Below are positions 1 through 61,935 of a stretch of 64,000 bases of DNA, piece by piece. The position numbers and the translations under genes are program-made. This stretch comes from Mobula hypostoma (Eukaryota). The DNA is taken from NCBI RefSeq assembly GCF_963921235.1, contig NC_086108.1, positions 94,056,001 to 94,120,000 on the forward strand. Reading direction: 5' to 3'. Numbering within the stretch: the stretch's first letter is position 1; the number at the start of each line of letters is the position of its first letter. Under the pieces are notes generated by a model. It made no database searches, was not told where the DNA came from, and saw only the letters and a list, made by a program, of their open reading frames with translations.

Positions 1-545
1 AGGGGGGAGGGGTGAAGTAAAGAGCTGGGAAGTTGATTGGTGGAAGAGATACAGGGCTGGAGAAGGGGGGATCATGGGAGAGGACAGAAGGCCATGGAAG
101 AAGGGGAAGGGGGAGGAGCACCAGAGGGAGGTGATGGGCTGGTAAGGAGATAAGGTGAGAGAGGGGAATGGGGGAATGGTGAAGGGGAGGGGGGGGGGAC
201 AATTACCAGAAACTCGAAATGGATGCTTATGCCATCAGGTTGGAGGCCACCCGGACATTATACTGTATAAGTTGTTGCTCCTACAACCTGAGTGTGGCCT
301 TATCCTAGCAGTAGAAGAGGCTATGGACTGACTTGTTGGAATGAGAAAGGAAGTAGAATTGAAATGGGTGGCCACCGGGAAATCCCGCTTTTTGTTGGGG
401 GCCGAACGAAGGTGCTCGACGAATCAATGTCGGGTGTCACCGATATACAGGAGGCCACACCAGGAGCACCGGATACAGTAGGTGACCCCAGCAGACTCAC
501 AAGTAAAGTATCGCCTCACCTGGAAGGACTGCTAGAGGCCCTGAA
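1..545 (-). mobile_element. Old degenerate Penelope-like element 3' fragment (GIY-YIG C-terminus plus purine-rich 3' UTR)
   Basis: atgccatcaggttggaggc and acaacctgagtgtggcc match, with many substitutions, the GIY-YIG end of the PLE at 20602-20960. Confidence 0.75.
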
Positions 546-611: not shown

Positions 612-824
612 AAAAACAACAGGAATTCTGCAGATGCTGGAAATTCAAGCAACACACATAAAAGTTGCTGGTGAATGCAGCAGGCCAGGCAGCATCTCTA
701 GGAAGAGGTGCAGTCGACATTCGTTAGTCCTGACGAAGGGTCTCGGCCTGAAACGTCGACTGCACCTCTTCCTAGAGATGCTGCCTGGCCTGCTGCGTTC
801 ACCAGCAACTTTTATGTGTGTTGC
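612..824. mobile_element. Fold-back PLE-terminus mini-element with hammerhead motif and 14-bp TSD
   Basis: Direct repeat aagtagtaaaagaa at 598-611 and 825-838. Inverted 70-bp arms at 649-718 and 755-824 with one mismatch. Sequence matches the PLE terminus at 20206-20335. Confidence 0.9.
726..761 (+). ncRNA. Minimal type I hammerhead ribozyme motif
   Basis: agtc|CTGACGA|agggtctcggcct|GAAAC-GTC|gact. Stem I agtc/gact, core CUGANGA and GAAA, palindromic ACGU helix III, predicted cleavage after C757. Confidence 0.8.
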
Positions 825-1994: not shown

Positions 1995-2582
1995 AACCCG
2001 TCCTAAATTGGGGGACCCCTTCGTGGAGCATCTCTGCTCCATCCACCAAAAGCAGAACTTCCTGATGGCCAAACATTCTAATTCCCATTCCGACGTGTTG
2101 GTCCCCGGTCTCCTCTTGTGCCAAGATGAGGCCACCCTCAGGGTGGAGGAGCAACACCTTGTATTCCATCTGGGTAGCCTCCAACCTGATGGTATGAATA
2201 TTGATTTCTCCTTCTGGGGGGGAAAATTCTCTCCCCCTCCCTCATCCTCTATTCCCACTCTGGCCTTTTACCTCTTCTCACCTGCCTATCACCTTCTCTG
2301 GTGTCTCCTCCTTCCCTTTTTCCTGTCGTCCATTCTCCGCTCCTTTCAGATTCCTCCTTCTCCAGCCCTTTACCTTTCCCAGCTGCCTGGCTTTTCCTCC
2401 ACCCCCACCCCCACCTTTTTATTTTTGCACATTCCCCTTTCCTTTAAAAGCCTGAAGAAGGGTCTTGGCGTGACATGTCAACGGTTTATTTCTTTCCATA
2501 GATACTTGCTGCCGTGCTGAGTTCCTCCAGCATTTTATGTGCGTTTCTTTGGATTTCCAGCATCTGCAGAGTTTCTCGTGTT
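1995..2582 (+). mobile_element. Degenerate PLE 3' fragment (GIY-YIG C-terminus, pyrimidine-rich UTR, decayed HHR, terminus)
   Basis: ORF 2008-2520 contains [27 protein letters not shown]. Decayed ctgaagaagggtcttggcgtgacatgtc near 2452-2479. Ends tccagcatctgcagagtttctcgtgttt. Confidence 0.85.
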
Positions 2583-5135: not shown

Positions 5136-5225
5136 CGGTATGCAAGACAAGTGACAATAATAAACTACCTGAGTGGGATCTGTATTGTGAGATTGAGTGT
5201 AAAGTTACTTTAATGTGCAATCTAC

Positions 5226-6163
5226 ACACATCAAAGTTGCTGGTGAACGCAGCAGGCCAAGCAGCATCTGTAGGAAGAGGTGCAGTCGACGTTTCAGGCC
5301 GAGACCCTTCGTCAGGACTAACTGAAGGAAGAGTGAGTAAGGGATTTGAAAGTTGGAGGGGGAGGGGGAGATCCAAAATGATAGGAGAAGACAGGAGGGG
5401 GAGGGATAGAGCCGAGAGCTGGACAGGTGACAGGCAAAAGGGGATACGAGAGGATCATGGGACAGGAGGTCCGGGAAGAAAGACAAAGGGGGGGGGACCC
5501 AGAGGATGGGCAAGAGGTATATTCAGAGGGACAGAGGGAGAAAAAGGAGAGTGAGAGAAAGAATGTGTGCATAAAAATGAGTAACAGATGGGGTACGAGG
5601 GGGAGGTGGGGCCTTAGCGGAAGTTAGAGAAGTCGATGTTCATGCCATCAGGTTGGAGGCTACCCAGACGGAATATAAGGTGTTGTTCCTCCAACCTGAG
5701 TGTGGCTTCATCTTTACAGTAGAGGAGGCCGTGGATAGACATGTCAGAATGGGAATGGGATGTGGAATTAAAATGTGTGGCCACCGGGAGATCCTGCTTT
5801 CTCTGGCGGACAGAGCGTAGATGTTCAGCAAAGCAGTCTCCCAGTCTGCGTCGGGTCTCGCCAATATATAAAAGGCCACATCGGGAGCACCGGACGCAGT
5901 ATATCACCCCAGTCGACTCACAGGTGAAGTGTTGCCTCACCTGGAAGGACTGTTTGGGGCCCTGAATAGTGGTAAGGGAGGAATTGTAAGGGCATGTGTA
6001 GCACTTGTTCCGCTTACACGGATAAGTGCCAGGAGGGAGATCAGTGGGGAGGGATGGGGGGGGACAAATGGACAAGGGAGTTGTGTAGGGAATGATCCCT
6101 GCGGAATGCAGAGAGAGGCGGGGAGGGAAAGATGTGCTTAGTGGTGGGATCCCGTTGGAGGTG
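5226..6163 (-). mobile_element. 5'-truncated PLE with intact Cys-rich linker and GIY-YIG endonuclease (ORF 5614-6075) and HHR-bearing terminus
   Basis: CKRNKCYTC...VIYCVRCSRCGLLYIGET...EH...HF...H. Near-identical to 20240-21150. gcaatctac repeated at 5217-5225 and 6164-6172. Confidence 0.92.
5284..5319 (-). ncRNA. Minimal hammerhead ribozyme motif in the PLE terminus
   Basis: Reverse complement reads agtcCTGACGAagggtctcggcctGAAACGTCgact. Confidence 0.8.
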
Positions 6164-6354
6164 GCAATCTACCTGATTGTTATTTCATCATCTAAAGAGA
6201 AATTACCTGGAACCCCATGAAGCTGTCAGCCTGCTCCACCCTGCTCCCATGGCTGTTCTTCCTGTGAAGCCCAGTGTTGTCGCAGCCAGGTCTTCACCAG
6301 TGGGCCTGGTGCTACTGATAGGTGTGGCTGCTGAAAAAGGACCAACAGACAACC

Positions 6355-6450
6355 ACCACACAACATGCTGGAGCGACTCAGCAGGCCAGGCAGCATCTAT
6401 GGAGAAGAGTAAACAGCTGACGTTTCGGGCCGAGACCCTTCATCAGGACC
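6355..6450 (-). mobile_element. Short PLE-terminus derivative with hammerhead core
   Basis: Reverse complement of 6414-6450 is ggtcCTGATGAagggtctcggcccGAAACGTCagctg. Core intact, stem I weak. Confidence 0.65.
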
Positions 6451-6479
6451 CTTGTCCTCAACGTCAAGAAGCTTGCAAC

Positions 6480-7495
6480 GTCCTTGAACTCAACGTCAGT
6501 AAGATGAAAGAGCTGATTGTGGACTTCAGGAAGGGTAAGACAAAGGAACACATACCAATCCTCATAGAGGGATCAGAAGTGGAGAGAGTGAGAAGTTCCT
6601 GGGTGTCAAGATCTCTGAGGATCTAACCTGGTCCCAACATATCGATGCAGCTACAAAGAAGGCAAGACAGCAACTACCCTTCATTGGGAGTTTGAAGAGA
6701 TTTGGCATGTCAACAAATACACTCAAAAACTTCTATAGTTGTACTGTGGAGAGCATTCTGACAGGCTGCATCACTGTCTGGTATGGGGGGGAGGACTGAA
6801 AGAAGTTATAAATTTAGTCAGCTCCACCTTGGGTACTAGCCTACAAAATACCCAGGACATCTTCAGGGAGCGGTGTCTCAGAAAGGCAGCATCTATTATT
6901 AAGGACCTCCAGCACCCAGGGCATGCCCTTTTCTCACTGTTACCATCAGGTAGGAGGTACAGAAGCCTGAAGGCACTCAGCAATTCAGGAACAGTTTCTT
7001 CCCCCTGCCATCCGATTCCTAAATGAAAATCAAGAGTAAGTCTAAATTCCGAAATGGACATTGATCCTGTGAACACTACTTCACGTTTTAAATATATATT
7101 ATTTCTGTTTTTGCATGGTTTTTAATCTATTTGTTGTACATATACTGTAATTACATAGAAACATAGAAAATAGGTGCAGGAGTAGGCCATTCGGCCCTTC
7201 GAGCCTGCACCGCCATTTATTATGATCATGGCTGATCATCCAACTCAGAACTCCGCCCCAGCCTTCCCGCCATACCCCCTGACCCCTGTAGCCACAAGGG
7301 CCATATCCAACTCCCTCTTAAACATAGCCAATGAACTGGCCTCAACAGTTTCCTGTGGCAGAGAATTCCACAGATTCACCACAAATTCATTAATTGATTT
7401 ACTTTTTTTCTTCTTCTATATTATGTATTGCATTGAACTGCTGCTGCTGAGTTAACAAATTTCACGACGCATGCTGGTGATAATAAATCTGATTC
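6480..7495 (+). mobile_element. Rex1/Babar-type LINE 3' fragment, with a CR1 3'-UTR piece inserted at about 7154-7382
   Basis: Motifs LNVSKMKELIVDFRK and ALFSLLPSGRRYRSL. Tail ataaatctgattctga. Confidence 0.75.
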
Positions 7496-10769: not shown

Positions 10770-10935
10770 ACATCTGAAAATTCAGGCAACACACATAAAA
10801 GTTGCTGGTGAACGCAGCAGGCCAGGCAGCATCTATAGGAAGGGGTACAGTTGACGTTTCGGGCCGAGACCCTTCGTCAGGACTAACTGAAAGAAGAGGT
10901 AGTAAGAGATTTGAAAGTGGGAGGGGGAGGGGGAT
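10770..10935 (-). mobile_element. PLE terminus fragment with hammerhead motif (10849-10884)
   Basis: Reverse complement agtcCTGACGAagggtctcggcccGAAACGTCaact. Confidence 0.8.
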
Positions 10936-11035
10936 CACTGTCGGCTGAGGTGTGTGACAATGAGGAAGATCAGCTGGTTGATGTGTGTTGCAACGACAAT
11001 TTTGTACTCAATGCCAGCAAGACTAAGGAATTGAT

Positions 11036-11201
11036 CACAAACGAGAGAAAATCCGCAGATGCTGAAAGTGAAAGTAATACACACAAAATGCTGGAGGAAC
11101 TCAGCAGGCCAGGCAGCATCTATGGAAAAGAGTAAAATAGTTGACGTTTCAGGTTGAGATGCTGTATGGCCTGCTGAGTTCCTCCAGCACTGTGTGTGTA
11201 T
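11036..11201. mobile_element. Older fold-back PLE-terminus derivative with about 15-bp TSD
   Basis: atgctggaggaactcagcaggcca is inverted as tggcctgctgagttcctccagca. gactaaggaattgat at 11021-11035 reappears split by the MITE (11202-11207 and 11725-11736). Confidence 0.7.
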
Positions 11202-11207
11202 GACTGA

Positions 11208-11724
11208 AGGCTGATTTATACTTCTGTGTCAACTTGACGCCGTAGGTACAGCGTTGCTGTGAACCCTACGTAGAGCCTACGCAGATCCCTATGCCGTCGC
11301 CTGATGCGCACCTCTCCCAAAATGTAACTGCGCGTCGCGGCAACGCAGACCACAACAACTGTGATTGGTCCGCTTGGTAGCGTCGCATTTCCTCCTACGC
11401 TGCAATAGCTTCCCATTGGGCGACTGAAGGGCAGGGAAGGAACTCTGGCTGCAATGCTTTCCATAAAGCTTTACAGACCTCCAAAATTATGGAGGACACA
11501 TTTTGCTTTTACGAAAAAAGGTACTCGCTTTAAACTTGTATACCCCGAGAAAGACTACCATGAACATGAAGCCTTGCGCGGGCAGGTGTGTGTGCACATG
11601 CACGACGTGCCCGAAATGCAGAGCGACGCAGACACACCAACGCACAAGTATAAATGCTCACAACACGCGTCGGTCACTAGCGTAGGTTACGGCGTCGAGT
11701 TGACACACAAGTATAAATCAGCCT
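11208..11724. mobile_element. PIF/Harbinger-like MITE
   Basis: TIR aggctgatttatacttctgtgtcaacttgacgccgta versus tacggcgtcgagttgacacacaagtataaatcagcct. 3-bp flanks tga/taa. CpG-rich interior implies a young age. Confidence 0.85.
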
Positions 11725-11902: not shown

Positions 11903-13995
11903 ATAGAACCATAGAAACTACAGCACAGAAACAGGCCTTTTGGCCCTTCTTGGCTGTGCCGAACCATTTTCTGCCTAGTCCCACTGACCTGCACATGGAC
12001 CATATCCCTCCATACACCTCCCATCCATGTATCTGTCCAATTTATTGTTAGATGTTAAAAAAGAACCCGCATTTACCACCTCATCTGGTAGCTCATTCCA
12101 TACTCCCACCACTCTCTGTGTGAAGAAGCCCCCCCCCAATGTTTCCTTTAAATTTTCCCCCCCTCACCCTTAACCCATGTCCTCTGGTTTTTTTCTCCCC
12201 TTGCCTCAGTGGAAAAAGCCTGCTTGCATTCACTCTATCTATACCCATCATAATTTTATATACCTCTATCAAATCTCCCCTCATTCTTCTACGCTCTAGG
12301 GAATAAAGTCCTAACCTATTCAACCTTTCTCTGTAACTGAGTTTCTCAAGTCCCAGCAACATCCTTGTAAACCTTCTCTGCACTCTTTCAACCTTATTTA
12401 TATCCGTCCTGTAATTTGGTGACCAAAACTGAACACAATACTCCAGATTCGGCCTCACCAATGCCTTATACAACCTCATCATAATATTCCAGCTCTTATA
12501 CTCAATACTTTGATTAATAAAGGCCAATGTACCAAAAGCTCTCTTTACGACCCTATCTACCTGTGGCGCCACTTTTAGGGAATTTTGTATCTGTATTCCC
12601 AAATCCCTCTGTTCTACTGCACTCCTCAGTGCCTTACCATTAACCCTGTATGTTCTACCTTGGTTTGTCCTTCCAACGTGCAATACCTCACACTTGTCTG
12701 TATTAAACTCCATCTGCCATTTTTCAGCCCATTTTTCCAGCTGGTCCAAGTCCCTCTGCAGGCTCTGAAAACCTTCCTCACTGTCTACTGCACCTCCAAT
12801 CTTTGTATCATCAGCAAATTTGCTGATCCAATTTACCACATTATCATCCAGATCATTGATATAGATGACAAATAACAATGGACCCAGCACTGATCCTTGT
12901 GGCACACCACTAGTCACAGGCCTCCACTCAGAGAAGCAATTCTCAACTACCACTCTTTGGCTTCTTCCATTGAGCCAATGTCTAATCCAATTTACCACCT
13001 CTCCATTTATACCTAGCGACTGAATTTTCCTAACTAACCTCCCATGCAGGACCTTGTCAAAGGCCTTACTGAAGTCCATGTAGACAATATCCACTGCCTT
13101 CCCATCATCCACTTTCCTGGTAACCTCCTCGAAAAACTCCAATAGATTGGTCAAACATGACCTACCACGCACAAAGCCATGTTGACTCTCCCTAATAAGT
13201 CCCTGTCTATCCAAATGCTTGTAGATTCTGTCTCTTAGTACTCCCTCCAATAACTTACCTACTACTGACGTTAAACTTACCGGCCTATAATTTCCCGGAT
13301 TACTTTTCGATCCTTTTTTAAACAACCGAACAACATGAGCCACTCTCCAATCCTCCGGCACCTCATCCGTAGACAGCGATGTTTTAAGTATTTCTGCCAG
13401 GGCCCCTGCAATTTCAACACTAGTCTCCTCCAAGGTCCGAGGGAACACCCTGTCAGGTCCCGGGCATTTACCCATGTTAATTTTCCTCAAGACAGCAAGC
13501 ACCTCCTCCTTTACAATCTGTACAATTTCCATGATCTCACTACTTGATTCCCTTAATTCCATAGACTTCATGGCAGTTTCCTTAGTAAATATTGACGCAA
13601 AAAACCTATTTAAGATCTCCCCCATTTCCTTTGGTTCCGCACATAGCTGACCACTCTGATCTTCAAGAGGACCAAGTTTATCCCTTACAATCCTTTTGCT
13701 CTTAATATACCTGTAAAAGCTCTTTGGATTATCCTTCACTTTGACTGCCAAGGCAACCTCATGTCTTCTTTTAGCCCTCCTGACTTCTTTCTTAAGTATT
13801 TTCTTGCACTTCTTATACTCCTCAAGCAGCTGATTTACTCCCTGTTTCCTATACATGTCATACAACTCCCTCTTCTTCTTTATCAGAGTTGCAATATCCC
13901 TGGAGAACCAAGGTTCCTTATTCCTATTCACTTTGCCTTTAATCCTGACAGGAACATACAAACTCTGCACTCTCAAAATTTCTCCTTTGAAAACT
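11903..13995 (-). mobile_element. 5'-truncated CR1 LINE; ORF2 RT region open over about 630 codons
   Basis: ORF 12093-14168 contains NYRPVSLTS, YMDFSKAFDKV, GVPQGSVLGP, KFADD, LVRPNLEYC. 3' tail atagaaccatagaa. Confidence 0.95.
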
Positions 13996-15493
13996 TTCAT
14001 TAGGAGTTTGAGAAGATTTGCTATGTCACCAAAGATTCTATCAAATTTCTGCCAGTGTAAGGTGGAGAGCATTCTAACTGGTTGCATCATCTCCTGATAT
14101 GGAGGCTCTAATGCGCAGAACGGCCCTCCCCACCATTGAGGACATCTTCCAAAGTCAGTATCCGTCACTAAAGACCCTCACTATAACCATATGAGACATG
14201 CCCTCTCTCATTACTACCAGCGGGGAGGAGGCACAGGAGCTTAAAGACTCACTCCTAACATCTTAGGAAGAGCTCCTTTCTCTCCAGCATCAGATCTCCG
14301 AATGGTCCATAAAAATCACTATATGTTAGAAAAAGTAAATACATTCTGCAGAAGAGGAATAATGAGTGTTGATGGGCTCATTGACCATTGGCACACTTTA
14401 GGGCAGGTGCAGAGGAGATCCGCCAAAATGAGTTTTGTGGAGTCCTGGAGTGGTCCTTTGGCCCAGTGAGTCTGTGCTGACCACAGTGCCCACTCAGCTA
14501 ATGACAATTTATTGAATTTGGGCCAGATGCCGCCCCCCCCCCCCCCCACCATGTACCTGTCCATTTGCACCTACCCGTGGAGACTGGAAAGTCACCTTTG
14601 GAGAAAGGATGGTTGAGGAATGATTTAGTAGAAATGTTCATTACATTCAGCTTTGATTAAGTAAATAAAATTGCTAACCAGGGGGCATCATTGCAGGACA
14701 TCTGGCAAAACAAACAGGGAAATGAGAGGAATTTCCTTTCTAATGTTACCCTGTGTTATGGAAGGCAAACATAATGCACACTTATGAGAATTTGAGATTT
14801 CCAAGTTAGTCATACTTGTGGAAGAGTGAGTCAAGTTGGAGATTGTTTGCCTACACATATAATTTAAAGAAGACTACATAGAATCTAGCAGATTGGAAAT
14901 GATCTGGTGAGATTCTTTTGAAAAACCTTGATGGTCAATATGGAAGTTCGTACATTTCTGCATGAGCCTGTAAATAGTGCTCATATACAGCACCAAACCT
15001 GTCCATTGCTCGCTTGATTACTAGGAACATGGGAAGCATTCTTGTTTAGTTTTTGATATATTTGTAGTGTTAGCTTGTTTGTTTCAAGGTCATAATATGG
15101 CAACAATTTATCAGCCCATCCAGTGCTCAACAATAATATTGTCTAATGTGTAATTTTGATACTGATAAATAGTGTACAGTATTTGCTGCCAGGGCCACAT
15201 TTATTGTTCATCTCTGGTTATGTGGGATAAAAGGAAGGCCTGTTTTAAAGCCAACTGAACTGGTGCCTGGAACAAGAGAAAATCTGCAGATGCTGGAAAT
15301 CCAAAGCAACACAACACACACAGGAACTCAGTAGGCCAAGCAGCATCTGTGGAAAAGAGACACTTCATCAGGACTGGAAAAAAAAACTTCCTCCCCTCCT
15401 CCCTCTGTGGCAGCAATATAGAGGGTGCAGAAGTGAATCACCAGGATGTTGCCTGAGATGGGGATTGTACATGTAAGAAGAGTTTGGGTAGAC

Positions 15494-15629
15494 AACAGGA
15501 ATTCTGCAGATGCTGGAAATTCAAGCAACACACATCAAAGTTGCTGGTGAACGCAGCAGGCCAAGCAGCATCTATAGGAAGAGGCGCAGTCGACGTTTCA
15601 GGCCGAGACCCTTCGTCAGGACTAACCGA
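15494..15629 (-). mobile_element. Solitary PLE terminus with hammerhead motif (15588-15623)
   Basis: Ends a few bases past the HHR stem I. Flanked by ttgggtagac (15484-15493) and ttgggtaggc (15630-15639). Confidence 0.8.
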
Positions 15630-19240: not shown

Positions 19241-20205
19241 AAGTCTGCGATGGTGTGCCAACCTTTGATCAGGCAGCTGATGAGCTGCTGAGTAGGCAGC
19301 CAGCAGAGCCAGGGTTGGAGAGCTGTCAGTCTTCTGTCTTCCCCTCACTTCCACCCGCCTGATAGCACATATCACCAGACTCAGGGACAGCTTAACCCCA
19401 TTGTTATAAGACAATTGAATGGTTTCCTAGTACAATAAGATGAACTCTTGATCTATCTTTATGACCTTGTTGTTTGTTTCCTGGCACTGCACTTTCTCTA
19501 CAGCTGTCATACTTTATTCTGCATTGTTATTGTTTTACCTTGTTCTACCTCAATGTACTTTGCAATAATTTGATCTGTAAGATAAGATTTTCATTGTACT
19601 TCTGTACACGTGACAATAATACACCAATATCAAGGCAGCAGGCAATGCACTTGGAAGACTTGCCCGGGAAAGTCAGAAAGCCTCCACCCCCTGTGTGTTG
19701 TGTGTAGCGAGACTGGGTTCCTACTAACAACCCCTGGCAGTGGGCAAGGGAAGATCAAGGCCCTAGTAACAGCAAAGCAGTCTCATCTAGGAGCTTTGGA
19801 GTTTTGATGTTTTGGTGCGTAGACTCCATATATGAGAATTATGTGATGCAAAGCACACCGTGTATCCCATTTCTCAACACCCCTCGGGCCTGGTGGCCTC
19901 CAATCTCACACGATGTACCCAATAGGGCATTTCATAACATTGAAACGAGGCCCTGAGAAACATCATGTTCCGGGCCATTAGGTTTCTGCAAGAAATTTAG
20001 TTGCCAGGTTGGGATTAGCACTTGCCTCATCTGTTGGTGGGACATTATTAAGGAGGGACAACCAACCAGTAAGGCAAGGGAGGACCCACGCTGTTCAAGT
20101 CCACATCTTTATTAATTTATTTAATGACATTACTGGACAATAGGATGGACACAGAAAGGGTAAGTACCAATGCTTTTCTGCAAAAGGATTGATTCATAGT
20201 AACAA

Positions 20206-22546
20206 CAGGAATTCTGCAGATGCTGGAAATTCAAGCAACATACATCAAAGTTGCTGGTGAACGCAGCAGGCCAGGCAGCATCTCTAGGAAGAGGCGCAGT
20301 CGACATTTCAGGCCGAGACCCTTCGTCAGGACTAACTGAAGGAAGAGTGAGTAAGGGATTTGAAAGCTGGAGGGGGAGGGGGAGATCCAAAATGATAGGA
20401 GAAGACAGGAGGGGGAGGGATAGAGCCGAGAGCTGGACAGGTGATAGGCAAAAGGGGATACGAGAGGATCATGGGACGGGAGGTCCGGGAAGAAAGACAA
20501 GGAGGGGGAGGTGACCCAGAGGATGGGCAAGAGGTATATTCAGAGGGACAGAGGGAGAAAAAGGAGAGTGAGAGAAAGAATGTGTGCATAAAAATAGGTG
20601 CCTAGCGGAAGTTAGAGAAGTCGATGTTCATGCCATCAGGTTGGAGGCTACCCAGACGGAATATAAGGTGTTGTTCCTCCAACCTGAGTGTGGCTTCATC
20701 TTTACAGTAGAGGAGGCCGTGGATAGACATGTCAGAATGGGAATGGGATGTGGAATTAAAATGTGTGGCCACTGGGAGATCCTGCTTTCTCTGGCGGACA
20801 GAGCGTAGATGTTCAGCAAAGCGGTCTCCCAGTCTGCGTTGGGTCTCACCAATATATAAAAGGCCACATCGGGAGCACCGGACGCAGTATATCACCCCAG
20901 TCGACTCACAGTTGAAGTGATGCCTCACCTGGAAGGACTGTTTGGGGCCCTGAATGGTGGTAAGGGAGGAAGTGTAAGGGCATGTGTAGCACTTGTTCCG
21001 CTTACACGGATAAGTGCCAGGAGGGAGATCAGTGGGGAGGGATGGGGGGGACGAATGGACAAGGAAGTTGTGTAGGGAGCGATCCCTGCGGAATGCAGAG
21101 AGAGGCGGGGAGGGAAAGATGTGCTTAGTGGTGGGATCCCGTTGGAGGTGGCGGAAGTTACGGAGAATAATATGTTGGATCCAGAGGCTGGTGGGGTGGT
21201 AGGTGAGGACCAGGGGAACCCTATTCCTAGTGGGGTGGTGGGAGGATGGAGTGAGAGCAGATGTACGTGAAATGGGGGAGATGCGTTTAAGAGCAGAGTT
21301 GATAGTGGAGGAAGGGAAGCCCTTTTCTTTAAAAAATGAAGACATCTCCCTCGTCCTAGAATGAAAAGCCTCATCCTGAGAGCAGATGCGGCGGAGACGG
21401 AGGAATTGCGAGAAGGGGATGGCGTTTTTGCAAGAGACAGGGTGAGAAGAGGAATAGTCCAGGTAGCTGTGAGAGGCTGTAGGCTTATAGTAGACATCAG
21501 TGGATAAGCTGTCTCCAGAGACAGAGGCAGAAAGATCTAGAAAGGGGAGGGAGGTGTCGGAAATGGACCAGGTAAACTTGAGGGCAGGGTGAAAGTTGGA
21601 GGCAAAGTTAATAAAGTCAACGAGTTCTGCATGCGTGCAGGAAGCAGCGCCAATGCAGTCGTCGATGTAGCAAAGGAAAAGTGGGGGACAGATACCAGAA
21701 TAGGCACGGAACATAGATTGTTCCACAAACCCAACAAAAAGGCAGGCATAGCTAGGACCCATACGGGTGCCCATAGCTACACCTTTAGTTTGGAGGAAAT
21801 GGGAGGAGCAAAAGGAGAAATTATTAAGAGTAAGGACCAATTCCGCTAGACGGAGCAGAGTGGTGGTAGAGGGGAACTGATTAGGTCTGGAATCCAAAAA
21901 GAAGCATAGAGCTTTGAGACCTTCCTGATGGGGGATGGAAGTATATAAGGACTGGACATCCATGGTGAAAATAAAGCGGTGGAGGCCAGGGAACTTAAAA
22001 TCATTGAAAAGTTTAAGAGCGTGAGAAGTGTCACGAATATAGGTCGGAAGGGATTGAACAAGGGGTGATAAAACAGTGTCGAGGTATGCAGAAACGAGTT
22101 CGGTGGGGCAGGAGCAAGCTGAGACAATAGGTCGGCCAGGACAGGCAGGTTTGTGGATCTTGGGTAGGAGGTAGAAACGGGAAGTGCGGGGTGTGGGAAC
22201 TATAAGGTTGGTAGCAGTGGATGGGAGATCCCCTGAGCGGATAAAGTCGGTGATGGTGTGGGAGACAATGGCCTGGTGCTCCTTAGTGGGGTCACGATCG
22301 AGGGGTAAATAAGAGGAGGTATCGGCGAGTTGTCGCTGCGCCTCGGCAAGGTAGAGGTCAGTACGCCAGACTACAACAGCACCCCACTTATCAGCGGGTT
22401 TAATAATAAGGTTAGGATTAGTGCGGAGGGAGTGGAGAGCAGAGCGTTCCGAAGGAGTGAGGTTGGAATGGGGACAAGGTGCGGTGAAGTCGAGACGGTT
22501 GATGTCCCGTCGGCAGTTAGCAATAAAGAGATCCAGAGCGGGCAGA
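20206..22546 (-). mobile_element. 5'-truncated Penelope-like element (Neptune-type) with 14-bp TSD
   Basis: attcatagtaacaa at 20192-20205 and 22565-22578. Long RT plus GIY-YIG ORF. HHR-bearing terminus at 20206-20335. Confidence 0.95.
20298..20333 (-). ncRNA. Hammerhead motif, variant GAAAU-GUC
   Basis: Reverse complement agtcCTGACGAagggtctcggcctGAAATGTCgact, with a CpG-type change in helix III. Confidence 0.7.
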
Positions 22547-22554
22547 AGTAACAA
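20602..22554 (-). CDS. PLE reverse transcriptase plus GIY-YIG endonuclease, N-terminally truncated, no stops over 650 codons
   Basis: IIKPADK, FYLLPKIHK, GRPIVS, MDVQSLYTSIP, QTKGVAMG, YIDD, FLD, YYKPT, CKRNKCYTC linker, VIYC..C..C...YIGET. The called start lies at the insertion junction and is not a real start codon. Confidence 0.93.
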   Translation of the reverse strand: MLLLPALDLFIANCRRDINRLDFTAPCPHSNLTPSERSALHSLRTNPNLIIKPADKWGAVVVWRTDLYLAEAQRQLADTSSYLPLDRDPTKEHQAIVSHTITDFIRSGDLPSTATNLIVPTPRTSRFYLLPKIHKPACPGRPIVSACSCPTELVSAYLDTVLSPLVQSLPTYIRDTSHALKLFNDFKFPGLHRFIFTMDVQSLYTSIPHQEGLKALCFFLDSRPNQFPSTTTLLRLAELVLTLNNFSFCSSHFLQTKGVAMGTRMGPSYACLFVGFVEQSMFRAYSGICPPLFLCYIDDCIGAASCTHAELVDFINFASNFHPALKFTWSISDTSLPFLDLSASVSGDSLSTDVYYKPTASHSYLDYSSSHPVSCKNAIPFSQFLRLRRICSQDEAFHSRTREMSSFFKEKGFPSSTINSALKRISPISRTSALTPSSHHPTRNRVPLVLTYHPTSLWIQHIILRNFRHLQRDPTTKHIFPSPPLSAFRRDRSLHNFLVHSSPPSLPTDLPPGTYPCKRNKCYTCPYTSSLTTIQGPKQSFQVRHHFNCESTGVIYCVRCSRCGLLYIGETQRRLGDRFAEHLRSVRQRKQDLPVATHFNSTSHSHSDMSIHGLLYCKDEATLRLEEQHLIFRLGSLQPDGMNIDFSNFR

Positions 22555-23164
22555 GTAACAAGTAATTCATAGTAACAAGTGGCTTTGATTGTTATTGATT
22601 CACCAGAGGACTTCTGGAGAATGCAGTTGGCATTATTTAAAATATAATACTGCAATTATTGAATGTTTTCACAGCATGAGTCATTAATTTTATTTCTGTT
22701 TCTCCGACATGCAAATGTTTGCTGGTATTGTCTCTACAACCCAGAGTCTGCACCTGGTCCCTCCCTGCCTAATAATGCCAGCAATGCAGTCTAGTGGTGG
22801 TTATGGGATGAGGAATTTCCTGCCTCCCTGGTGAGAATATTTTCAAACACTCAGTAGGCCAGGCATCATCTGTAGAATGAGAAACAGAGTTAAAGTTTTG
22901 AGGCTGGGGAACTTCAGGTGATGACTCTGACTCTATCCAACAGTTGCTGGTTTTGTTTCAGATTTTCGGCATCTGCAGTATATTGGATATTCAATCTATA
23001 GTAGCGAGGTATAGAAGGAGAGAAAGAACATAGTCTTTTTCCCACGGAGGAGATGCTAAAAATAAGGGATATTTATTTATTTGTCTGTCTGGCTCTTTAT
23101 TTATTTCTTACATTCAAGGGATGTATGAGCAATAAGGAAGGGACATGTGGGAGGATATTGCCCA

Positions 23165-25012: not shown

Positions 25013-25244
25013 TCGCAGAAGGATAAGCTGCCTTTCTTCTCTGCACGTTGCTGTTTCGTGCTTTAGAAATGGAGATTGGATCAGACCTTTCAGTGAATGA
25101 AGTAAGTGTTCCAAATGACTGAGTATTTATAACCCAGATAAGAGAGAAGAGCCCTCCTTTCTTTCACTTTCATATCGCAGAATGTGGTTTTAATTTCTTC
25201 GCCTCGCTGGTAGTGAAAGTATCCACTTTCCTCCCCGGTAACAG

Positions 25245-25358
25245 AGCCTGGAACTGGACGCACCTTTGATGAAGCATTTACCCATTTCCAAGTGGCTGGG
25301 CCAGCTGGGTCTCCCCGAGTACCTGAAGCTCTTTGATGAAGAGTACGACGGAGTGGAG
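25245..25358 (+). CDS. Host exon encoding the N-terminal half of a SAM domain: (SLELDAPL)MKHLPISKWLGQLGLPEYLKLFDEEYDGVE; possibly a BCAR3/SH2D3 (NSP) family long isoform
   Basis: Pyrimidine tract plus cag acceptor at 25242-25244. ATG at 25269. Consensus donor GAG|GTGAGT after 25358. WL-x2-LGL-x2-Y-x3-F is the SAM helix 1-2 signature. The family guess is from memory and is unverified. Confidence 0.8.
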
Positions 25359-25689
25359 GTGAGTGAGAGACTGTCTCCAAACAGGACAGTAAACTTCTAA
25401 TGAGCTGCAAGTAAACCCTATTTGTGCTAATGTTGAGTGGTCTGAGAGGTACATCAGAGCCTGGTCTCCATCTGAATCCAGGTCAGCTGGAGGCTGGAGA
25501 ATGTAGACTGTCTTGGGGTTAGAGACCTAGACACTACTATGGCTGTGGGGAGGAATGGGGCTTGTTTTGTTGCTTATTGTGTTCTGTGTTATTCTGCTGA
25601 GCGTGGTGGGTGTGCAATGTTGGTGCTGGAATGTGTAGTGACGCTTATGTGCTTCCTCTACCTCACCATCAGGTGTGTTGGTTAGAGTC

Positions 25690-31753: not shown

Positions 31754-31960
31754 ACCATAGAAAACATACACAGCCGAGCATTTTAGAGAGTGTCTGAAAG
31801 TAGTTTAAGGTGAGAGGGAGGACATTTTAAAGAGGATCCATGGGGTAACTCTCTTTGTGAAAAAGTTACCCCATGGATCCTCTTTAAAATGTCCTCCCTC
31901 TCACCTTAAACTACTTTCAGACACTCTCTAAAATGCTCGGCTGTGTATGTTTTCTATGGT
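31754..31960. repeat. Perfect inverted repeat: 97-bp arms, 13-nt spacer
   Basis: 31754-31850 is the exact reverse complement of 31864-31960. Spacer ctctttgtgaaaa. Confidence 0.97.
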
Positions 31961-34529: not shown

Positions 34530-36555
34530 CCAGAATCATAATCGGGTTTAATATCAATCACATGCATCATGACATGTGTTGTTTTGCGGAGGCAGTGCAT
34601 TTATTTGTTTGTTTATTTTGTGATACAGCATGGAGGAGATCCTTCTGGTCCTTTGAGCTGCACAACCCCACAACCCCACAAGCCCGATAAGCACTAATAT
34701 ATATAATAAGTAGTGCAGAAAGAGAGAGAAAAAGAACTGCAGTAGAATTCATGGGTTCAACGCCCATTCAGAAATTTAGTGGCAGATGGGAAGAAACTGT
34801 TCCTGCATCATTGAGTGTGTGCTTTCAGGTTCCTGTACCTCCTTCCTGATGGTGGTAATGAGTAGGGGGCATGCCTGGGTGATGGGGATCTTTAATGATG
34901 TACGCTGCCTTTTTGAGGCATTGCTCCTTGAAGATGGCCTGGATACTATGGAGGCTAGTGCCCATGATGGAGCTGACTGAGTTTACAACTCTCTGCAGCT
35001 TTTTCTGATCCCGTGCTGTGGCCCCTCCATACCAGATGGTGATGCAACCAGTTAGAATGCTCTACATGGTACGTCTGTAGAAAGTTGTGAACGTTATAGA
35101 TGACATACCAAGTCTTATCAAATTCCTAATGAAATATAGCCACTGTCGTGCCTTCTTGCATCAATATGTTGGGCCCAGGATAGATCCTCAGAGATGTTGA
35201 TACGCAGGAACATGAAACTGCTCATCCTTTCCACTGTTGATCCATCGATGAGCACTGCTGTGTGTTCCCCTTACTGAAGTCTACAATCTTACTGACATTG
35301 AGTGTTAGCTTGTCGCTGTAGCGTAACTCAACCAGCTGATCTATCTCGCTCCCGTACGTCACCTCGTCACCATCCGAAATTCTGCCAACAATAGTTGTGT
35401 CATCAGCAAATTTATCGACGGTGTTTGAACTGTGCCTAGCCACACAGTCATGGGTGTAGAGAGAGTAGAGCAGTGGGTTAAGCACACACCCTTGGTGCAC
35501 CAGCGGGGAAGAGCTGTTACTTCCGATCCGCACAGACTGGTCTCCTGTCGAGGAAGTCAAGAATCCAGTTGCAGAGGGAGGTAGAGAGAGCCAGGTTTTC
35601 GAGCTTGTTGATTAGAACTGAGGGTATAATTGTGTTAAACACTGAGCTGTTGTCAATAACAGCAGCCTGACATAGTATTGTCCAGGCGATCCAAGGCCAG
35701 GTGGAGAACCAGTGAGATTCCATGCACAGTAGACCTATTGTAGTAATAGGCAAATTACAGTGGGTCCAAGTCCCTGCTTATGCACGGGTTGAATCTAGCC
35801 ATGACCAACCTCTCAAAACACTTCACCACAGTAGATGTGAGGGCCACTGGGTGATGGTCACTGAGGCAGCTCACTCTGCTCTTCTTGAACACTGGTATGA
35901 TTGTTGCCCTTCTGAAGTGGGTGAAAACCTCAGACTGCCTCAGTGAGATATTGAAGACGTCCTTGAGTATTCCCACCAGTTGGTTGGCACAGATTTTTCG
36001 GAAACCTACCAGGCACACCAAGAAGTGCTTGATGCCTTTTGAGGGCACACCCTCTTGAAAGAAGTTCTGACGTCAGCCTCTGAGACAGAGATCATGGGGG
36101 GTCACCAGAAGCTGCAAGGTGTACATAGGTGTAGTATTACTTTCCCATCAAAGCATGCGTTAAATACATTGAGCTCATCCAGGAGTGAAGTATCACAGCC
36201 ATTCATGATGTTAGGTCTCGTTTTGTAGGAAGTAATGTCCTGCGAGCTCTGCCAGAGCTGAAGTGCACAAATCGGAATTGCTTTTATCGCTCTTAGAGTA
36301 GCCATTCGTAGGTGGTACCTGGACGACTTGTACAGTTCTGGATCACCGGTCTTGATAATGCACACTTACTTTTATCATGCACTTTGAATGCCACAGATCT
36401 ACCCTCAGCAGGCTGTGAATCTCCTGGTTTTGGTATGTCCAGCATGTTCTCAAAGGCACACACTCATCCCCACAGCTCTTGATGAAGCCGGTGACAACGG
36501 TGGTGTATTAGTTCAGATTTGAAGATGTATTCCTGAATATTGTCAAAGCGCCATT
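34530..36555 (-). mobile_element. Degenerate Rex1/Babar LINE (RT region)
   Basis: HPVALTSTVVKCFERLV, QGCVLNPLLYSLYTHDC, KFADDTTIVG. Confidence 0.85.
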
Positions 36556-36560
36556 GAACA

Positions 36561-37194
36561 GGATGGTGTCAGTATGTCGTATCACCATCTCAGTACCTGG
36601 ATGGTGTCAGTATGCCGTACCATCTCAGTACCTGGATGGTGTCAGTATGTCGTATCACCATCTCAGTCCCTGGATGGTGTCAGTATGCCGTACCATCTCA
36701 GTACCTGGATGGTGTCAGTATGCTGTATCACCATCTCAGTACCTGGATGGTGTCAGTATGTCGTATCACCATCTCAGTCCCTGGATGGTGTCAGTATGCC
36801 GTATCACCATCTCAGTCTCTGGATGGTGTCAGTATGCCGTACCATCTCAGTACCTGGATGGTGTCAGTATGCTGTATCACCGTCTCAGCACTTGGATGGT
36901 GTCAGTATGCCGTATCACCGTCTCAGCACCTGGATGGTGTCAGTATGTCGTATCACCGTCTCTGCACCTGGATGGTGTCAGTATGTCGTATCACCGTCTC
37001 AGCACTTGGATGGTGTCAGTATGCTGTATCACCGTCTCTGTACCTGGATGGTGTCAGTATGCTGTATCACCGTCTCTGTACCTGGATGGTGTCAGTATGC
37101 CGTATCACCGTCTCAGCACCTGGATGGTGTCAGTATGCTGTATCACCATCTCTGTACCTGGATGGTGTCAGTATGCTGTATCACCATCTCAGCA
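36561..37194. repeat. Minisatellite, about 17 units of 38 bp (three are 35-bp variants): GGATGGTGTCAGTATGYYGT(ATC)ACCRTCTCWGYACCT
   Basis: Head-to-tail units start at 36561, 36599, 36634, 36672, 36707 and continue to 37160. There are no unique spacers. Confidence 0.97.
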
Positions 37195-37419
37195 TAGCTC
37201 CACTTGTGCTAGCAGTGTGATGTTCCACAGCAAATTGGTGCAGAGAGCCAGTATGCCCCTCCATGACCCAAAAGCCCAGGTGCCAACTGTTGCTGTGCTA
37301 ACAGTAGGTTAATTTAGACTTGGACCCACGTACATCGTGCTCCACAGTACCCTACAAACTTGCTAAACCTAACAAGTTAGGATGTTATTCCCTGGAGCAT
37401 AAGAGAATGAGGGGAGATT

Positions 37420-45770: not shown

Positions 45771-46937
45771 AGAACATAGAATAGTACAGCACAGTACAGG
45801 CCCTTCGGCCCACAATGTTGTGCTGACCCTCAAACACTGCCTCCTATATAACCCCCCACCTTAAATTCCTCCATATACCTGTCTAGTAGTCTCTTAAACT
45901 TCACTAGTATATCTGCCTCCACCACTGACTCAGGCAGTGCATTCCACACACCAACCACTCTCTGAGTGAAAAACCTTCCTCTAATATCCCCCTTGAACTT
46001 CCCACCCCTTAACTTAAAGCCATGTCCTCTTGTATTGAGCAGTGGTGCCCTGGGGAAGAGGCGCTGGCTATCCACTGTATCTATTCCTCTTAATATCTTG
46101 TATATCTCTGTCAAGCCTCCTCTCATCCACCTTCTCTCCAAAGAGAAAAGCCCTAGCTCCTTTAATCTCTGATCATAATGCATACTCTCTAAACCAGGCA
46201 GCATCCTGGTAAATCTCCTCTGTACCCTTTCCAATGCTTCCACATCCTTCCTACAGTGAGGCGACCAGAACTGGACACAGTACTCCAAGTGTGGCCTAAC
46301 CAGAGTTTTATAGAGCTGCATCATTACATCACAACTCTTAAACTCTATCCCTCGACTTATGAAAACTAACACCCCATAAGCTTTCTTAACTACCCTATCT
46401 ACCTGTGAGGCAACTTTCAGGGATCTGTGGACATGTACCCCCAGATCCCTCTGCTCCTCCACACTACCAAGTATCCTGCCATTTACTTTGTACTCTGCCT
46501 TGGAGTTTGCCCTTCCAAACTGTACCACATCACACTTTTCCAGGTTGAACTCCATCTGCCACTTCTCAGCCCACTTCTGCAACCTATCAATGTCTCCCTG
46601 CAACTTCGACAATCCTCTACACTATCTACACCACCACCAACCTTTGTGTCATCTGCAAACTTGCCAACCCGCCCTTCTACCCCCACATCCAGGTCGTTAA
46701 TAAAAATCACGAAAAGTAGAAGTCCCAGAACCAATCCTTGTAAGACACAAGTAGTCACAACCCTCCAGTCCGAATGTACTCCCTCCACCACCACCCTCTG
46801 CCTTCTGCAGGCAAGCCAATTCTGAATCCACCTGGCCAAACTTCCCTGGATCCCATGCCCTCTGACTTTCTGATTAAGCCTACCGTGTGGAACCTTGTCA
46901 AGTGCCTTACTAAAATCCATGTAGATCACATCCACTG
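45770..46937 (-). mobile_element. 5'-truncated CR1 LINE, same subfamily as 55185-58070
   Basis: ORFs 46483-46935 and 45830-46612 nearly match the proteins at 55248-56521. Confidence 0.93.
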
Positions 46938-47552: not shown

Positions 47553-48300
47553 AACACAAGAAATTCTGCAGAAACTGGAAATCCAAAGCAACCAACATGC
47601 ACACACGCACATACACACACGCGCACACACGCACACGCGCACACGCACACACGCGCACACACGCACACGCACACGCGCGCACACACACGCGCACACACAC
47701 GTGCGCACACGCACACGCGCACACACGCACGCGCACACACACATACACACACACACACGCGTGCACACACACACACACACACACACACGCGCACACACGC
47801 ACACACATGCAACACTGGAGCAGGTCAGGCAGCATCTATGGAAATGAATAAACAGTTGATGTTTCAGGTTAAGACACTTCTTCAGGACTGTAAGGGAACG
47901 GGGAAGAGACCAGGGGAAGGGCAGAAGGCTAGCTGGAAGGTGATGGGTGAAGCCATGTGGGTGGGAAAGGTAAAGGGCTGGAGAAGAAGGAATGTGATAG
48001 GATAGGAGAGGAGAGTAGACCATAGGAGAAAGGGAAGGAGGAGGGGACCCAACGGGAGGTGAGAAGAGGTAAGAGGCCAGAGTGGGGAGTAGAAGAAGGG
48101 ATGGGGAGAGAAACATTTTTTTAACTAGAAGGAGAAATTGATGTTCATGCCATCAGGTTGGAGGCTACCCAAACAGAATATAAGGTGTTGCTCCTCCACC
48201 TTGTGGGTGGTCTCACCTTGGCACAAGAGGCCATCCTCAGGGTAGAAAAGCAACACTTTATATTCCATCTGGGTAGCCTCCAACCTGACGGCGTGAATCT
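47553..48300 (-). mobile_element. Older PLE 3' fragment with expanded (CA/CG)n tract, HHR-like motif (47853-47890) and inverted 5' segment (about 48226-48298)
   Basis: Reverse complement cagtcCTGAAGAagtgtcttaacctGAAACATCaactg. GIY-YIG tail at 48140-48215 repeated in the opposite orientation. Confidence 0.75.
47597..47810. repeat. Alternating purine-pyrimidine (CA/CG)n tract
   Basis: Direct reading. Confidence 0.97.
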
Positions 48301-58848: not shown

Positions 58849-60209
58849 TAAGAGAAGTTTGTCTAAGTACGTGGATGGGAGAGGTACAGAGAGCTATGAT
58901 CCAGGTGTAGGTCAATAGGATTAGGCAGAATTATAGTCTGGTGTGGATGAGATGGGCTGAAGGGCCTGTTTCTGTGCTGTGGTATGAATGAACTAACGGC
59001 AGGGATCTGCAAGTCCAAGGACAAGAGGACATGGATTCACTGCAGTTGGCATAAGTAACTGGGGTTTTAGGGCAACACCCTTTTCCACCATGAGTTTCTG
59101 AGATCTACAGTTCACTTCCTGAGGGGTGTGGAAGCAGGTTCAATTGCAAAGTTAATTAGAGGGTTGTATAAATTCTCAAACAGGAAGTGATTTGCAGAGC
59201 CACTGCGAATGATTGGCAGAGTGGGAAATGGGACTGGTTGGACTGCTTTCCTAATCAGTCACCTGAAGTAGAGTGAGTGGTCTGAACGGCTGCCTTCTCG
59301 ACACCGTTCTATGGTAAGTGACCTCAGGTCCCCTGCCTTCTCAGTCCTTAATGTGACACCCTCTCTTGCTCTCCCTGCTGCAGGGGTGAGCCTCGTTGAT
59401 GTCGTAGAGTCTGAGGGTTGAAGCTATGATCTCTCCAGCCACTTCACCCAAATTATACTTTTCAGCATTGTCTTCCCCTGTAATTGTTCTTTCTTCCCAG
59501 TCTTTACATGCATTTGATGCCCGTCCGATATAATACTGTGAAGGCATGGTTACCACATGGAGTGGGTTTTGTGCATTTTCTGACTTTGTCGACAAAATTA
59601 ACATGGATATCTGAAAACAGACCTGTTTGTTACCCGGGGAACAGCCCGGACAGCTTTCAACATTCTGGCACCTCTGCCCGCCAATGCTGATTCGTGACTT
59701 CCCTCAAAATCTCCTTATTCCTCCACCTTGCTGTTTCCCTCCCTGGTTTTAAAAGTCACTTAACATCCCTTCTTTCAAGCTTGTTTTCCCTAACCAAGCC
59801 TTCACCTGAACCCCATTTTTGTCCCCCATACCAATAGGGTGGACTACTTTTTGCTGTCATGCACCCCTAAGATTCTTACAGATTAGGTAGCGTTCCTTGG
59901 AAGAGAAGTACTTTAGGTGTTGAGCGAATATCAGGCTCTCCGTTGCGATGTGTACACAAGCCAGAGCAGTACAATATGGAGCAAGCTGTTGCCCATGCGG
60001 CAGGCATCCCCTCTTCACACAGCTAACGAACCCAAAGGAACAGCACAGACTGATACAGTTTGGCACCAGCGGCATTGCAGGAGTCGTCAGTCAGCACTAA
60101 ACTCAGTAAAGGGTTGCCTTAGGGATTCCAGCTCTGGATTTTTCTTGGGTTTTACTCCCAAAGCCTTCCCCATGAATGGGTAAAGCCAAAGGCAGTGGAG
60201 ATTTAAGAT

Positions 60210-60491
60210 ACATAAAAGTTGCTGGTGAACGCAGCAGGCCAGGCAGCATCTGTAGGAAGAGGTGCAGTCGACATTTCAGGCCGAGACCCTTCGTCAGGAC
60301 TAATTGAAGGAAGAGTGAGTAAGGGCTTTCAAATCCCTTACTCACTCTTCCTTCAGTTAGTCCTGACGAAGGGTCTCGGCCTGAAACGTCGACTGCACCT
60401 CTTCCTAGAGATGCTGCCTGGCCTGCTGCGTTCACCAGCAACTTTTATGTGTGTTGCTTGAATTTCCAGCATCTGCAGAATTCCTGTTGTT
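60210..60491. mobile_element. Fold-back PLE-terminus insertion with two opposed hammerhead motifs and 14-bp TSD
   Basis: tggagatttaagat at 60196-60209 and 60492-60505. Arms 60210-60325 and 60335-60450. Confidence 0.92.
60359..60394 (+). ncRNA. Minimal hammerhead ribozyme motif; opposite-strand copy at 60266-60301
   Basis: agtcCTGACGAagggtctcggcctGAAACGTCgact. Confidence 0.8.
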
Positions 60492-61935
60492 TGGAGATTT
60501 AAGATCAGAGTTTTCCTTCTTGGACGAGCTACCAACCACGTGAGCTCCATCTGCCTGATAACCTTTCGATATTTACCTGTTGAATACTGAAAGACCCAGA
60601 TGGAGAGGATATTTCAAATAGTGGGAGAGTCTATGACCAGAGAGCAGAGCCTCTGAATACACAGGTGTCCCTTTAAGACAGAGATGAGGAGGAATTTCTT
60701 TACCCAGAGGTTGGTGAATCTGTGGAATTCATTTTCATCTGTGGAAATCTGGAAAGAAGGCAGGAGAATGGGGTTGAGAGGAATAATAAATCGGCACCCT
60801 AGCTGTGGGTAACCAGTGCTTCATGATTTTACACCATAACATCCCTACTCTTTTTTTCTATACCATGTTCTGATTATGCCTTTCACTTTCAGGGACCCTT
60901 GAATTTGTACACCTCTGTTCCTGAATTCTTCCTATAGCTCTACTATTATGTCTACACCCTCCCAGAGCTACACCATCATAAGACATAGGAGCAGAATTAG
61001 ACCATTCGGCCCATTGAGTCTGCTCTGCTATTCCATCATGGCTAATTTATTATACTTCTCAACCCCGTTCTCCTGCCTTCTCCCCGTAACATCTGACACC
61101 CTGACTATCAACCTCTGCTTTAAATATGCCCAGTGACTTAGCCTCCACAGTCATCTGCTGGCAATAAATTCCAGTTTCACCCCCATCTGGGTAAAAAAAG
61201 TTCCTCCTCAGCTCTGTTCTAAATGGATGTCCCTCTATTCTGAGGCTGTGTTATAGACCAGATCAGATTTCAAAGACATTCCCCCTCATTCTTCTAAACT
61301 TTAGCGAGTACAGACCCAGAGCCATCAAATGCTCCTCAAACATTAACCATTTAATTCGCAGAATCACCTTTGCACTTATCAGGATTAAATTCTATCTGCC
61401 ATTGCTCTGCTCATGTTACCAATTGATGAATGTTGTTCTATAGACTACAACTATCCTCCTCACTGTCAACAACAGTATCGATTAAGTCACTTGCAAAATT
61501 ACTAATCATCCCTCCACACCCCCCCCCCACAGTTTTTTACCCAAACCATTAATATATGTCACAGACAGTAAGGGTCCCAGCTTATATTATTGGTCATGGG
61601 CTTCCAATCACACAAACATCATGACCCACTGTTCCTGAATACCACAACAATTTTGGATCCAATTTGCCCTGGATTCTGTCAGCAGGTCAGGCAGCACCCA
61701 CAAAGGGATGTGGGCAGGTCCAGAGAAAAGGTCTGGACCAGAAATGTTGACTGTCCATTTTCCCTTCCTTGGTGCTGCCTGACTCCTTGAACTCCCCCAG
61801 TGTTTTGAAAGTTGCCCCAGATTCTAGCATCTACAGTGTACTCTGTCCCCGTCGGTCGTATGGGCAAAAGGGATGAGCCTAGACGGCCATCTGGTTGGGC
61901 ATGTTAGAATTGAGCCGAAGAGTCTATTTCCACGC

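Follow-up and report, generated by a model that had tools for sequence, protein, structure and literature searches.

Results

Hammerhead motifs in the window

The window – the 64,000 nucleotides of Mobula hypostoma contig NC_086108.1 analysed here – carries near its start, at 614..824, a head-to-head insertion of two pseudo-LTRs (pLTRs) of a Penelope-like retrotransposon (PLE), one of which carries an intact minimal hammerhead ribozyme motif. An initial annotation listed ten such motifs, and all ten are present where it placed them. The main features are:

598-611 and 825-838: 14-bp target-site duplication of the insertion at 614..824
614..824, both strands: head-to-head pLTR insertion
614-721, minus: left arm of this pair, beginning within the motif, tailed
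723-824, plus: right arm of this pair, untailed
726..761, plus: intact minimal hammerhead motif (strict descriptor), in the right arm
2448..2483, plus: strongly decayed eleventh motif, absent from the first list, behind a GIY-YIG remnant
5284..5319, minus: intact motif in the 3′ pLTR of a 5′-truncated PLE (5218-6165) that retains the GIY-YIG coding end
6415..6450, minus: older solo copy with broken stem I
10849..10884, minus: motif of a solo copy (10774-10934), with G-C basal pair and a stem I mismatch at a CpG
15588..15623, minus: intact motif, within a solo insertion of 138 bp (15492-15629) that has a target-site duplication
20201..22548, minus: 5′-truncated PLE with target-site duplication, the longest PLE copy in the window
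20298..20333, minus: motif with CpG decay in helix III, in the 3′ pLTR of that longest copy
25245..25358, plus: likely host exon with cag and gtgagt borders, 38 SAM-like codons
46956..46991, minus: decayed older-subfamily copy (N7=A), short insertion with target-site duplication
47854..47889, minus: decayed older-subfamily copy, downstream of a GIY-YIG remnant
60205..60493, both strands: head-to-head pair with target-site duplication
60266-60301, minus: motif with decayed helix III, in the untailed arm of this pair
60359-60394, plus: intact motif, in the tailed arm

A core pattern allowing at most one mismatch matches the window 10 times, against 1.6 expected (100 shuffles, largest 6). The strict minimal-hammerhead descriptor – a 4-bp stem I, CUGANGA, a helix II of at least 3 bp, GAAA, a palindromic helix III and UH – is passed by four of the ten listed motifs. 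Seven had been described as good copies, which is right for 726, 5284, 15588 and 60359 and too generous for 10849, 20298 and 60266, which fail; at 20298 and 60266 ATGT replaces the ACGT palindrome. The three described as variants (6414, 46956 and 47853) are all present, on the minus strand, and are more decayed than the others. Changes in the six failing motifs fall for the most part at CpG sites. The cut of the 726..761 motif is predicted between 757 and 758, as the standard numbering (GAA-A15.1-C15.2-G16.2-U16.1-C17) places the scissile bond after C757.

Other elements share the window. A 694-codon stop-free frame at 12096-14177 (minus strand) has motifs of what we take to be a CR1-like LINE reverse transcriptase, with related fragments at 42116-43522, 45833-46965 and 55251-58135, and a remnant at 54845-55177 (plus strand) presumably resembles the N-terminal part of a Tc1/mariner transposase. 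The PLE stub at 6366-6449 is nested in the remnant of another LINE-like element (6350-7010). There are long fold-back repeats at 31754-31960 and 11035-11244, with weak Rfam hairpin matches below the gathering score, the latter repeat containing a truncated PLE end, and a tandem repeat at 36512-37309 has stop-free frames on the plus strand.

The carrier element

The longest PLE copy contains a 654-codon stop-free frame (20605-22566, minus strand) with reverse transcriptase (RT; YIDD), a CX4CxxC linker and a GIY-YIG endonuclease in that order, and the motif at 20298 lies about 270 bp downstream of this frame. The RVT_1 match of the frame (E 3.8e-5) is below the Pfam cut-off, the GIY-YIG match is over it in one scan and under it in another, and a PDB search with the PLE protein gave no match. 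The linker before the endonuclease reads CKRNKCYTC in translation and fits CX2-5CxxC, described as characteristic of Neptune and Nematis PLEs and as lacking in Penelope/Poseidon (PMC8557442). By linker and domain layout the carrier is probably a PLE of the Neptune/Nematis type.

Of a further 29 copies of the RT region in the genome, three (L034, L036 and L059) are tandem, with a motif-bearing pLTR followed by an ATG 170 nt past the motif start, and seven have an inverted pLTR copy upstream. The upstream pLTR of the three tandem full-length copies reaches 5′ of the motif, so these copies were not made from RNA cut at C17. No listed run containing the sequence is registered as RNA; contigs of sequencing runs cover the pLTR and the ORF start, and are of a kind from which strand, ends and level are not readable. 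Endonuclease coding sequence precedes motifs 20298, 5284 and 47853 and none of the seven others in the list, in keeping with the earlier remark that most motifs are uncoupled from coding sequence (7 of 10 in the window).

Hammerhead features and predicted folding

The assignment of the motif to the minimal type I hammerheads of PLE termini is supported by the order of its core, its helix I, its palindromic helix III and its position in the pLTR. The core CUGANGA ... GAAA ... NUH is present in type I order, closed by a helix I of 4-5 bp (AGUC/GACU, with an extra C-G in older subfamilies). A 4-bp helix II (GGGU/GCCY, loop CUCG) can be drawn following a single unpaired A, an arrangement published for minimal hammerheads (PMC4209133); the extra A after A9 occurs in 60/60 young copies. 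In the commonest form the basal helix II pair 10.1-11.1 is G-U, whereas it is G-C in published minimal hammerheads; position 11.1 is U in 48/60 and C in 10/60 young copies, and C in 48/87 old copies. Helix III is a palindromic ACGU (15.2-16.2) without loop III, and its departures are mainly CpG transitions.

An Rfam cmscan of the window (E<=1) returned 10 matches, none to a hammerhead family; the RF00163 search proposed earlier as a check thus fails to detect these motifs. In context, the hammerhead fold is predicted to lie 0.7-7.8 kcal/mol above the best fold, and lone copies are accordingly predicted to misfold, other folds beating that of the hammerhead. The folding z-score of the motif is -0.37, and the hammerhead dimer is placed at -8.9 kcal/mol versus -28.3 for the best predicted dimer fold. 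An upstream 'anti-core' hairpin, considered as a regulator, is predicted in the young family and was set aside as not clearly above shuffled upstream sequence (fractions of 0.055, 0.30, 0.07, 0.035 and 1.0 in the five subfamilies described below). When the descriptor was relaxed to admit a longer helix II, a U3/A8 or C6 core and longer palindromes, no second hammerhead family appeared in a 1.864-Mb sample, made up of 464 kb surrounding the window plus 1.4 Mb lying between the CUB exons of three giant genes.

Copy number

A 34-base consensus has 41,517 exact matches in the 3.48-Gb genome and none when reversed, bearing out the proposal that copy number is very high; a 27-mer downstream of it matches 104,240 times. 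The 1.864-Mb sample holds 44 strict motifs (one per 42 kb; none in reversed and complemented controls), 26 exact motifs (one per 72 kb) and, regardless of quality, 147 motif-complete copies (one per 13 kb). The suggested density of one motif per ~6 kb therefore describes the window when decayed copies are included and does not extend to the larger sample, where intact motifs occur once per 42 kb. Extrapolation from the 44 strict motifs gives ~82,000 intact motifs in the genome. Published counts of minimal hammerheads, obtained with other descriptors and assemblies, are ~4,000 in the coelacanth and ~9,000 in Xenopus tropicalis (PMC4209133). Our literature search found no higher count and no account of this PLE family, although supplements of the cited papers could list it, and nothing relevant on sharks.

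Subfamilies and decay

Of 163 copies, the 100 whose upstream sequence derives from the element were grouped by Ward clustering into five subfamilies plus one singleton. The 36-mer of the motif is retained across all five while the upstream 40 bases diverge, and its subfamily changes fall mainly at N7, loop II, 11.1, position 17, decayed CpGs and, in one subfamily, A6C; the catalytic core and NUH site are retained in four of the five. The A6C subfamily (cluster 5, 9/100 aligned copies of the 1.864-Mb sample) has a core reading CUGCCGA, and A6C is a natural hammerhead variant reported to favour manganese over magnesium in other hammerheads (PMC7151607).

Conservation and covariation had been put forward together as a check. 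The motif is conserved across subfamilies and no compensatory covariation was seen: none of 10 base pairs is altered on both sides among 11 window copies, a comparison of close families with little power, and stems are nearly invariant across the five subfamilies. The region downstream is conserved among subfamilies about as much as the motif, and with no compensatory change selection for catalysis is thus not proven. After insertion, mutations number 9/600 in the core and 14/1500 in the flanks (p 0.25), 35/480 at CpG sites, and 2/180 (core) versus 6/450 (flanks) in sense copies; the motif core decays neutrally after insertion.

Ends of copies

Counted from the motif start, the 3′ ends of 106 young copies gather in two clusters, near +95..105 and +131..139, and each of the 13 head-to-head pairs combines a short arm with a long one. 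Both element ends were internal start sites of reverse transcription in the Anolis PLE (PMC11167929), and a one-sided tail is known in PLEs (PMC3846280). At the other side, 24/106 young copies have 5′ ends at -10..+9, versus 7 over the 174 positions -224..-51; 25/106 extend beyond the reference, and 28/60 young complete copies begin at most 50 nt from the motif. Target-site duplications of at least 8 bp flank 9/17 short solo copies (mean of mismatched-pair controls, 0.19), so these stubs are separate insertion events.

A pyrimidine tract and YAG stand at the 5′ edge of stem I in 5/5 subfamilies, and the intron end of D. virilis Penelope is located similarly (PMC4209133); no GT..AG joint ending at the motif occurs among 12 listed joints (four runs, contigs only). 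A count of 7,132 copies starting at the first base of the motif was discarded as unusable, since about half of the first 100, judged by eye, belong to an older subfamily with different upstream sequence.

Is there a trace of cleavage?

Cleavage at C17 would leave copies beginning at about +32. None of the 106 young copies, an unbiased sample, begins at +31..+33. Genome-wide, counting copies with all three upstream bases mismatched, 498 begin at +32 (the cut site), 186 at +33 and 147 at +35; looser patterns give 258 at +31, of which roughly half look like the +32 type on visual inspection, and 263 at +29. The 498 are 0.5% of the 104,240 anchor-bearing copies. Of the first 21 places with a +32 junction, one is a tandem duplicate and was set aside; of the 20 that we read, 12 are GAC(T) microhomology joins, one is a single-base deletion and 7 are not explained in this way. 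Subtracting this 13/20 share leaves ~175 of the 498, near the neighbouring counts, and the small +32 excess appears largely explained by microhomology. Cut RNA would then be the source of at most a small fraction of copies; the raw +32 peak could mean that cut RNA is sometimes copied, and to that extent it counts against the explanation we favour below. Some junction types recur that look as if the hammerhead core had been excised precisely between short GAC or GTC repeats (13 of the first 100 listed +32 copies, by three flanking bases; one locus read).

Introns and host genes

A Pfam scan of 207 non-repeat frames gave three weak matches below the cut-off, one of which was later backed as the exon at 25245-25358. 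Contigs of two runs match 25243-25359 exactly and skip its flanks, and this spliced-looking plus-strand exon upholds the intronic setting proposed for the window, at least part of which is therefore likely inside a plus-strand gene. One run evenly covers the unique DNA flanking the exon and three others of the same study do not; such coverage may reflect tissue-specific pre-mRNA. If the gene spans the window, two of the ten listed motifs and two of the four intact ones (726 and 60359) are sense.

In the three giant genes (1.4 Mb) intact motifs divide 19:13 between sense and antisense, core matches 45:44, young complete copies 18:26 and old complete copies 33:26; sense copies are neither depleted nor enriched, the tested ratios not differing from 1:1, and the 95% interval of the sense fraction is 0.40-0.61 for these three genes only. 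LINE and endonuclease-fragment controls show no strand bias either, so the strand test may be insensitive here and weak selection would be missed. An apparently younger age of sense than antisense copies (p 0.002) was gone (p 0.99) with the family defined without an identity cut-off. Gaps between same-sense intact motifs are usually tens of kilobases (<2 kb in 1/16, <10 kb in 3/16).

Published behaviour of related motifs bears on these copies. Minimal motifs tested singly showed no cleavage and their dimers weak cleavage (PMC4209133); the hammerhead of the Anolis PLE required the PLE protein for cutting and was not needed for insertion (PMC11167929); and 8/9 Xenopus retrozyme dimers were inactive, with retrozymes depleted in introns (bioRxiv 10.64898/2026.07.22.740005). 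The proposal that introns are seeded with conditional self-cleaving RNAs does not find support here, with no strand bias, neutral decay of the core and predicted misfolding.

Discussion

Relation to known systems

The class of element is already described, and the scale is the striking part. The motif resembles the minimal hammerheads of PLEs (Cervera and de la Pena 2014, PMC4209133) in being type I, with the same core, a 4-5-bp helix I, an unpaired base after A9, a loopless palindromic helix III and a pLTR position; solo copies dominate in both, with opposite-strand pairs close together. In place of those ~4,000 or ~9,000 varied motifs, a single sequence accounts for at least 41,517 exact copies here, with G-U commonest at 10.1-11.1, a minor A6C subfamily, and activity that is predicted.

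The carrier shares RT, CX2-5CxxC linker and C-terminal GIY-YIG with Neptune/Nematis PLEs (Craig et al. 2021, PMC8557442), and its pLTR-ORF tandem, inverted 5′-truncated copy, 30-40-bp tail on one arm and target-site duplications with endonuclease-positive PLEs (PMC8557442; Arkhipova et al. 2013, PMC3846280). It departs from the Neptune/Nematis PLEs, to which it probably belongs, in that many insertions are 100-170-bp stubs beginning at the motif. PAc, a Poseidon element of Anolis carolinensis (Frangieh et al. 2024, PMC11167929), also has two ends ~36 nt apart downstream of the motif and genomic copies mostly from uncut RNA; it is of a different clade, and its ORF starts within the hammerhead, whereas here the ATG lies at +170 nt. 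Non-LTR retrozymes (Li et al. 2026, bioRxiv 10.64898/2026.07.22.740005) are similarly non-coding, pLTR-derived repeats with type I hammerheads; they form head-to-tail tandem arrays, unlike the dispersed monomers and head-to-head pairs here. No head-to-tail hammerhead units were found in the 1.864 Mb, where the shortest same-strand intact spacing is 1.9 kb.

What the motif does

The explanation we favour, to which we give a probability of roughly 0.7, is that the motif is the minimal hammerhead of the terminal repeat of an abundant PLE, whose insertion has left scattered copies that are probably inert; these are predicted to need dimerization or the PLE protein for cutting, and not to cut alone in host introns. 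Counting against it are also the G-U pair at 10.1-11.1 of the commonest form and the A6C subfamily. The PLE protein would nick DNA and prime reverse transcription internally, at two tail sites about 97 and 133 nt past the motif start, on uncut RNA; priming in the 5′ pLTR would be followed by run-off at the RNA end or a stall in front of the motif, giving 100-170-bp stubs, single or as head-to-head pairs primed from both strands. As the literature suggests, two motifs may pair via the ACGU palindrome, probably assisted by the PLE protein, and be cut after C17 at some step of the PLE cycle. Inserted copies would then decay neutrally, fastest at CpG sites including those of helix III.

That the resemblance to a hammerhead arose by chance is extremely improbable: the lack of an Rfam hammerhead match, the z-score of -0.37 and the missing covariation could be read that way, but all descriptor features are present where expected in a PLE, strict matches are absent from reversed and complemented controls, and the motif fits the published consensus of minimal PLE hammerheads (PMC4209133). 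A motif kept mainly for a non-catalytic job in the element RNA is unlikely, although several observations suit it. Such a job could be joining two RNAs via the ACGU palindrome, so that both target strands are primed, and all 13 head-to-head pairs use both priming sites, one in each arm; or it could be marking the 5′ end or a splice acceptor, as the pyrimidine tract and YAG at the 5′ edge of stem I, where 5′ ends cluster, would allow. Anolis elements with catalytic mutations in the motif remain able to insert in vitro (PMC11167929), and PLE clades without a hammerhead proliferate well (PMC8557442). Yet core and NUH site are kept in 4/5 subfamilies with variation at tolerant positions, a 4-bp palindrome is weak (-8.9 for the hammerhead dimer versus -28.3 kcal/mol for the best), and none of the 12 listed joints, from contigs only, is a GT..AG joint at the motif. 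We consider it very improbable that the ribozyme routinely cuts the PLE transcript in vivo and that new copies are usually templated by the cut RNA or its religated circular form, as has been proposed for PLEs (PMC4209133). The one-base local peak of 5′ ends at +32 and the 7/20 sampled junctions that microhomology does not explain speak for it; +32 starts are 0.5% of anchor-bearing copies, 13/20 junctions are microhomology joins or a one-base deletion, no young copy of 106 starts at +31..+33, and the upstream pLTRs of the three tandem copies extend 5′ of the motif.

Conditional self-cleavage of host pre-mRNA by tens of thousands of sense intronic copies, triggered when two copies meet or when PLE protein is expressed, is improbable. 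The numbers would permit it (~82,000 intact motifs by extrapolation, 19 of them intact and sense in the 1.4 Mb of three genes), solo copies retain the tail region where, by the Anolis study, the PLE protein is expected to act (PMC11167929), and the window is likely intronic, with 726 and 60359 intact and sense if a gene spans both. Against it stand sense:antisense ratios of 19:13, 45:44 and 51:52, sense mutations of 2/180 in the core versus 6/450 in the flanks, the wide spacing of same-sense intact motifs, predicted misfolding, and a lower divergence of sense copies that vanished without an identity cut-off (p 0.99). One version of this idea is a long shot with large consequences: stubs keep hammerhead and tail region together, so PLE protein, e.g. 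in the germ line, might switch on tens of thousands of ribozymes and have host pre-mRNAs cut in trans. If true, the genome would hold a protein-triggered ribozyme network as a transposon legacy.

Implications

The analyses above suggest that intact minimal hammerheads in sense orientation within introns are tolerated by animals, in agreement with the idea that these ribozymes are silent as monomers. Its more than 41,000 identical copies and ~100,000 young element ends make this genome a natural resource for questions of PLE biology, such as in vivo cutting by the hammerhead, the starting point of the template RNA and the way in which head-to-head insertions form.
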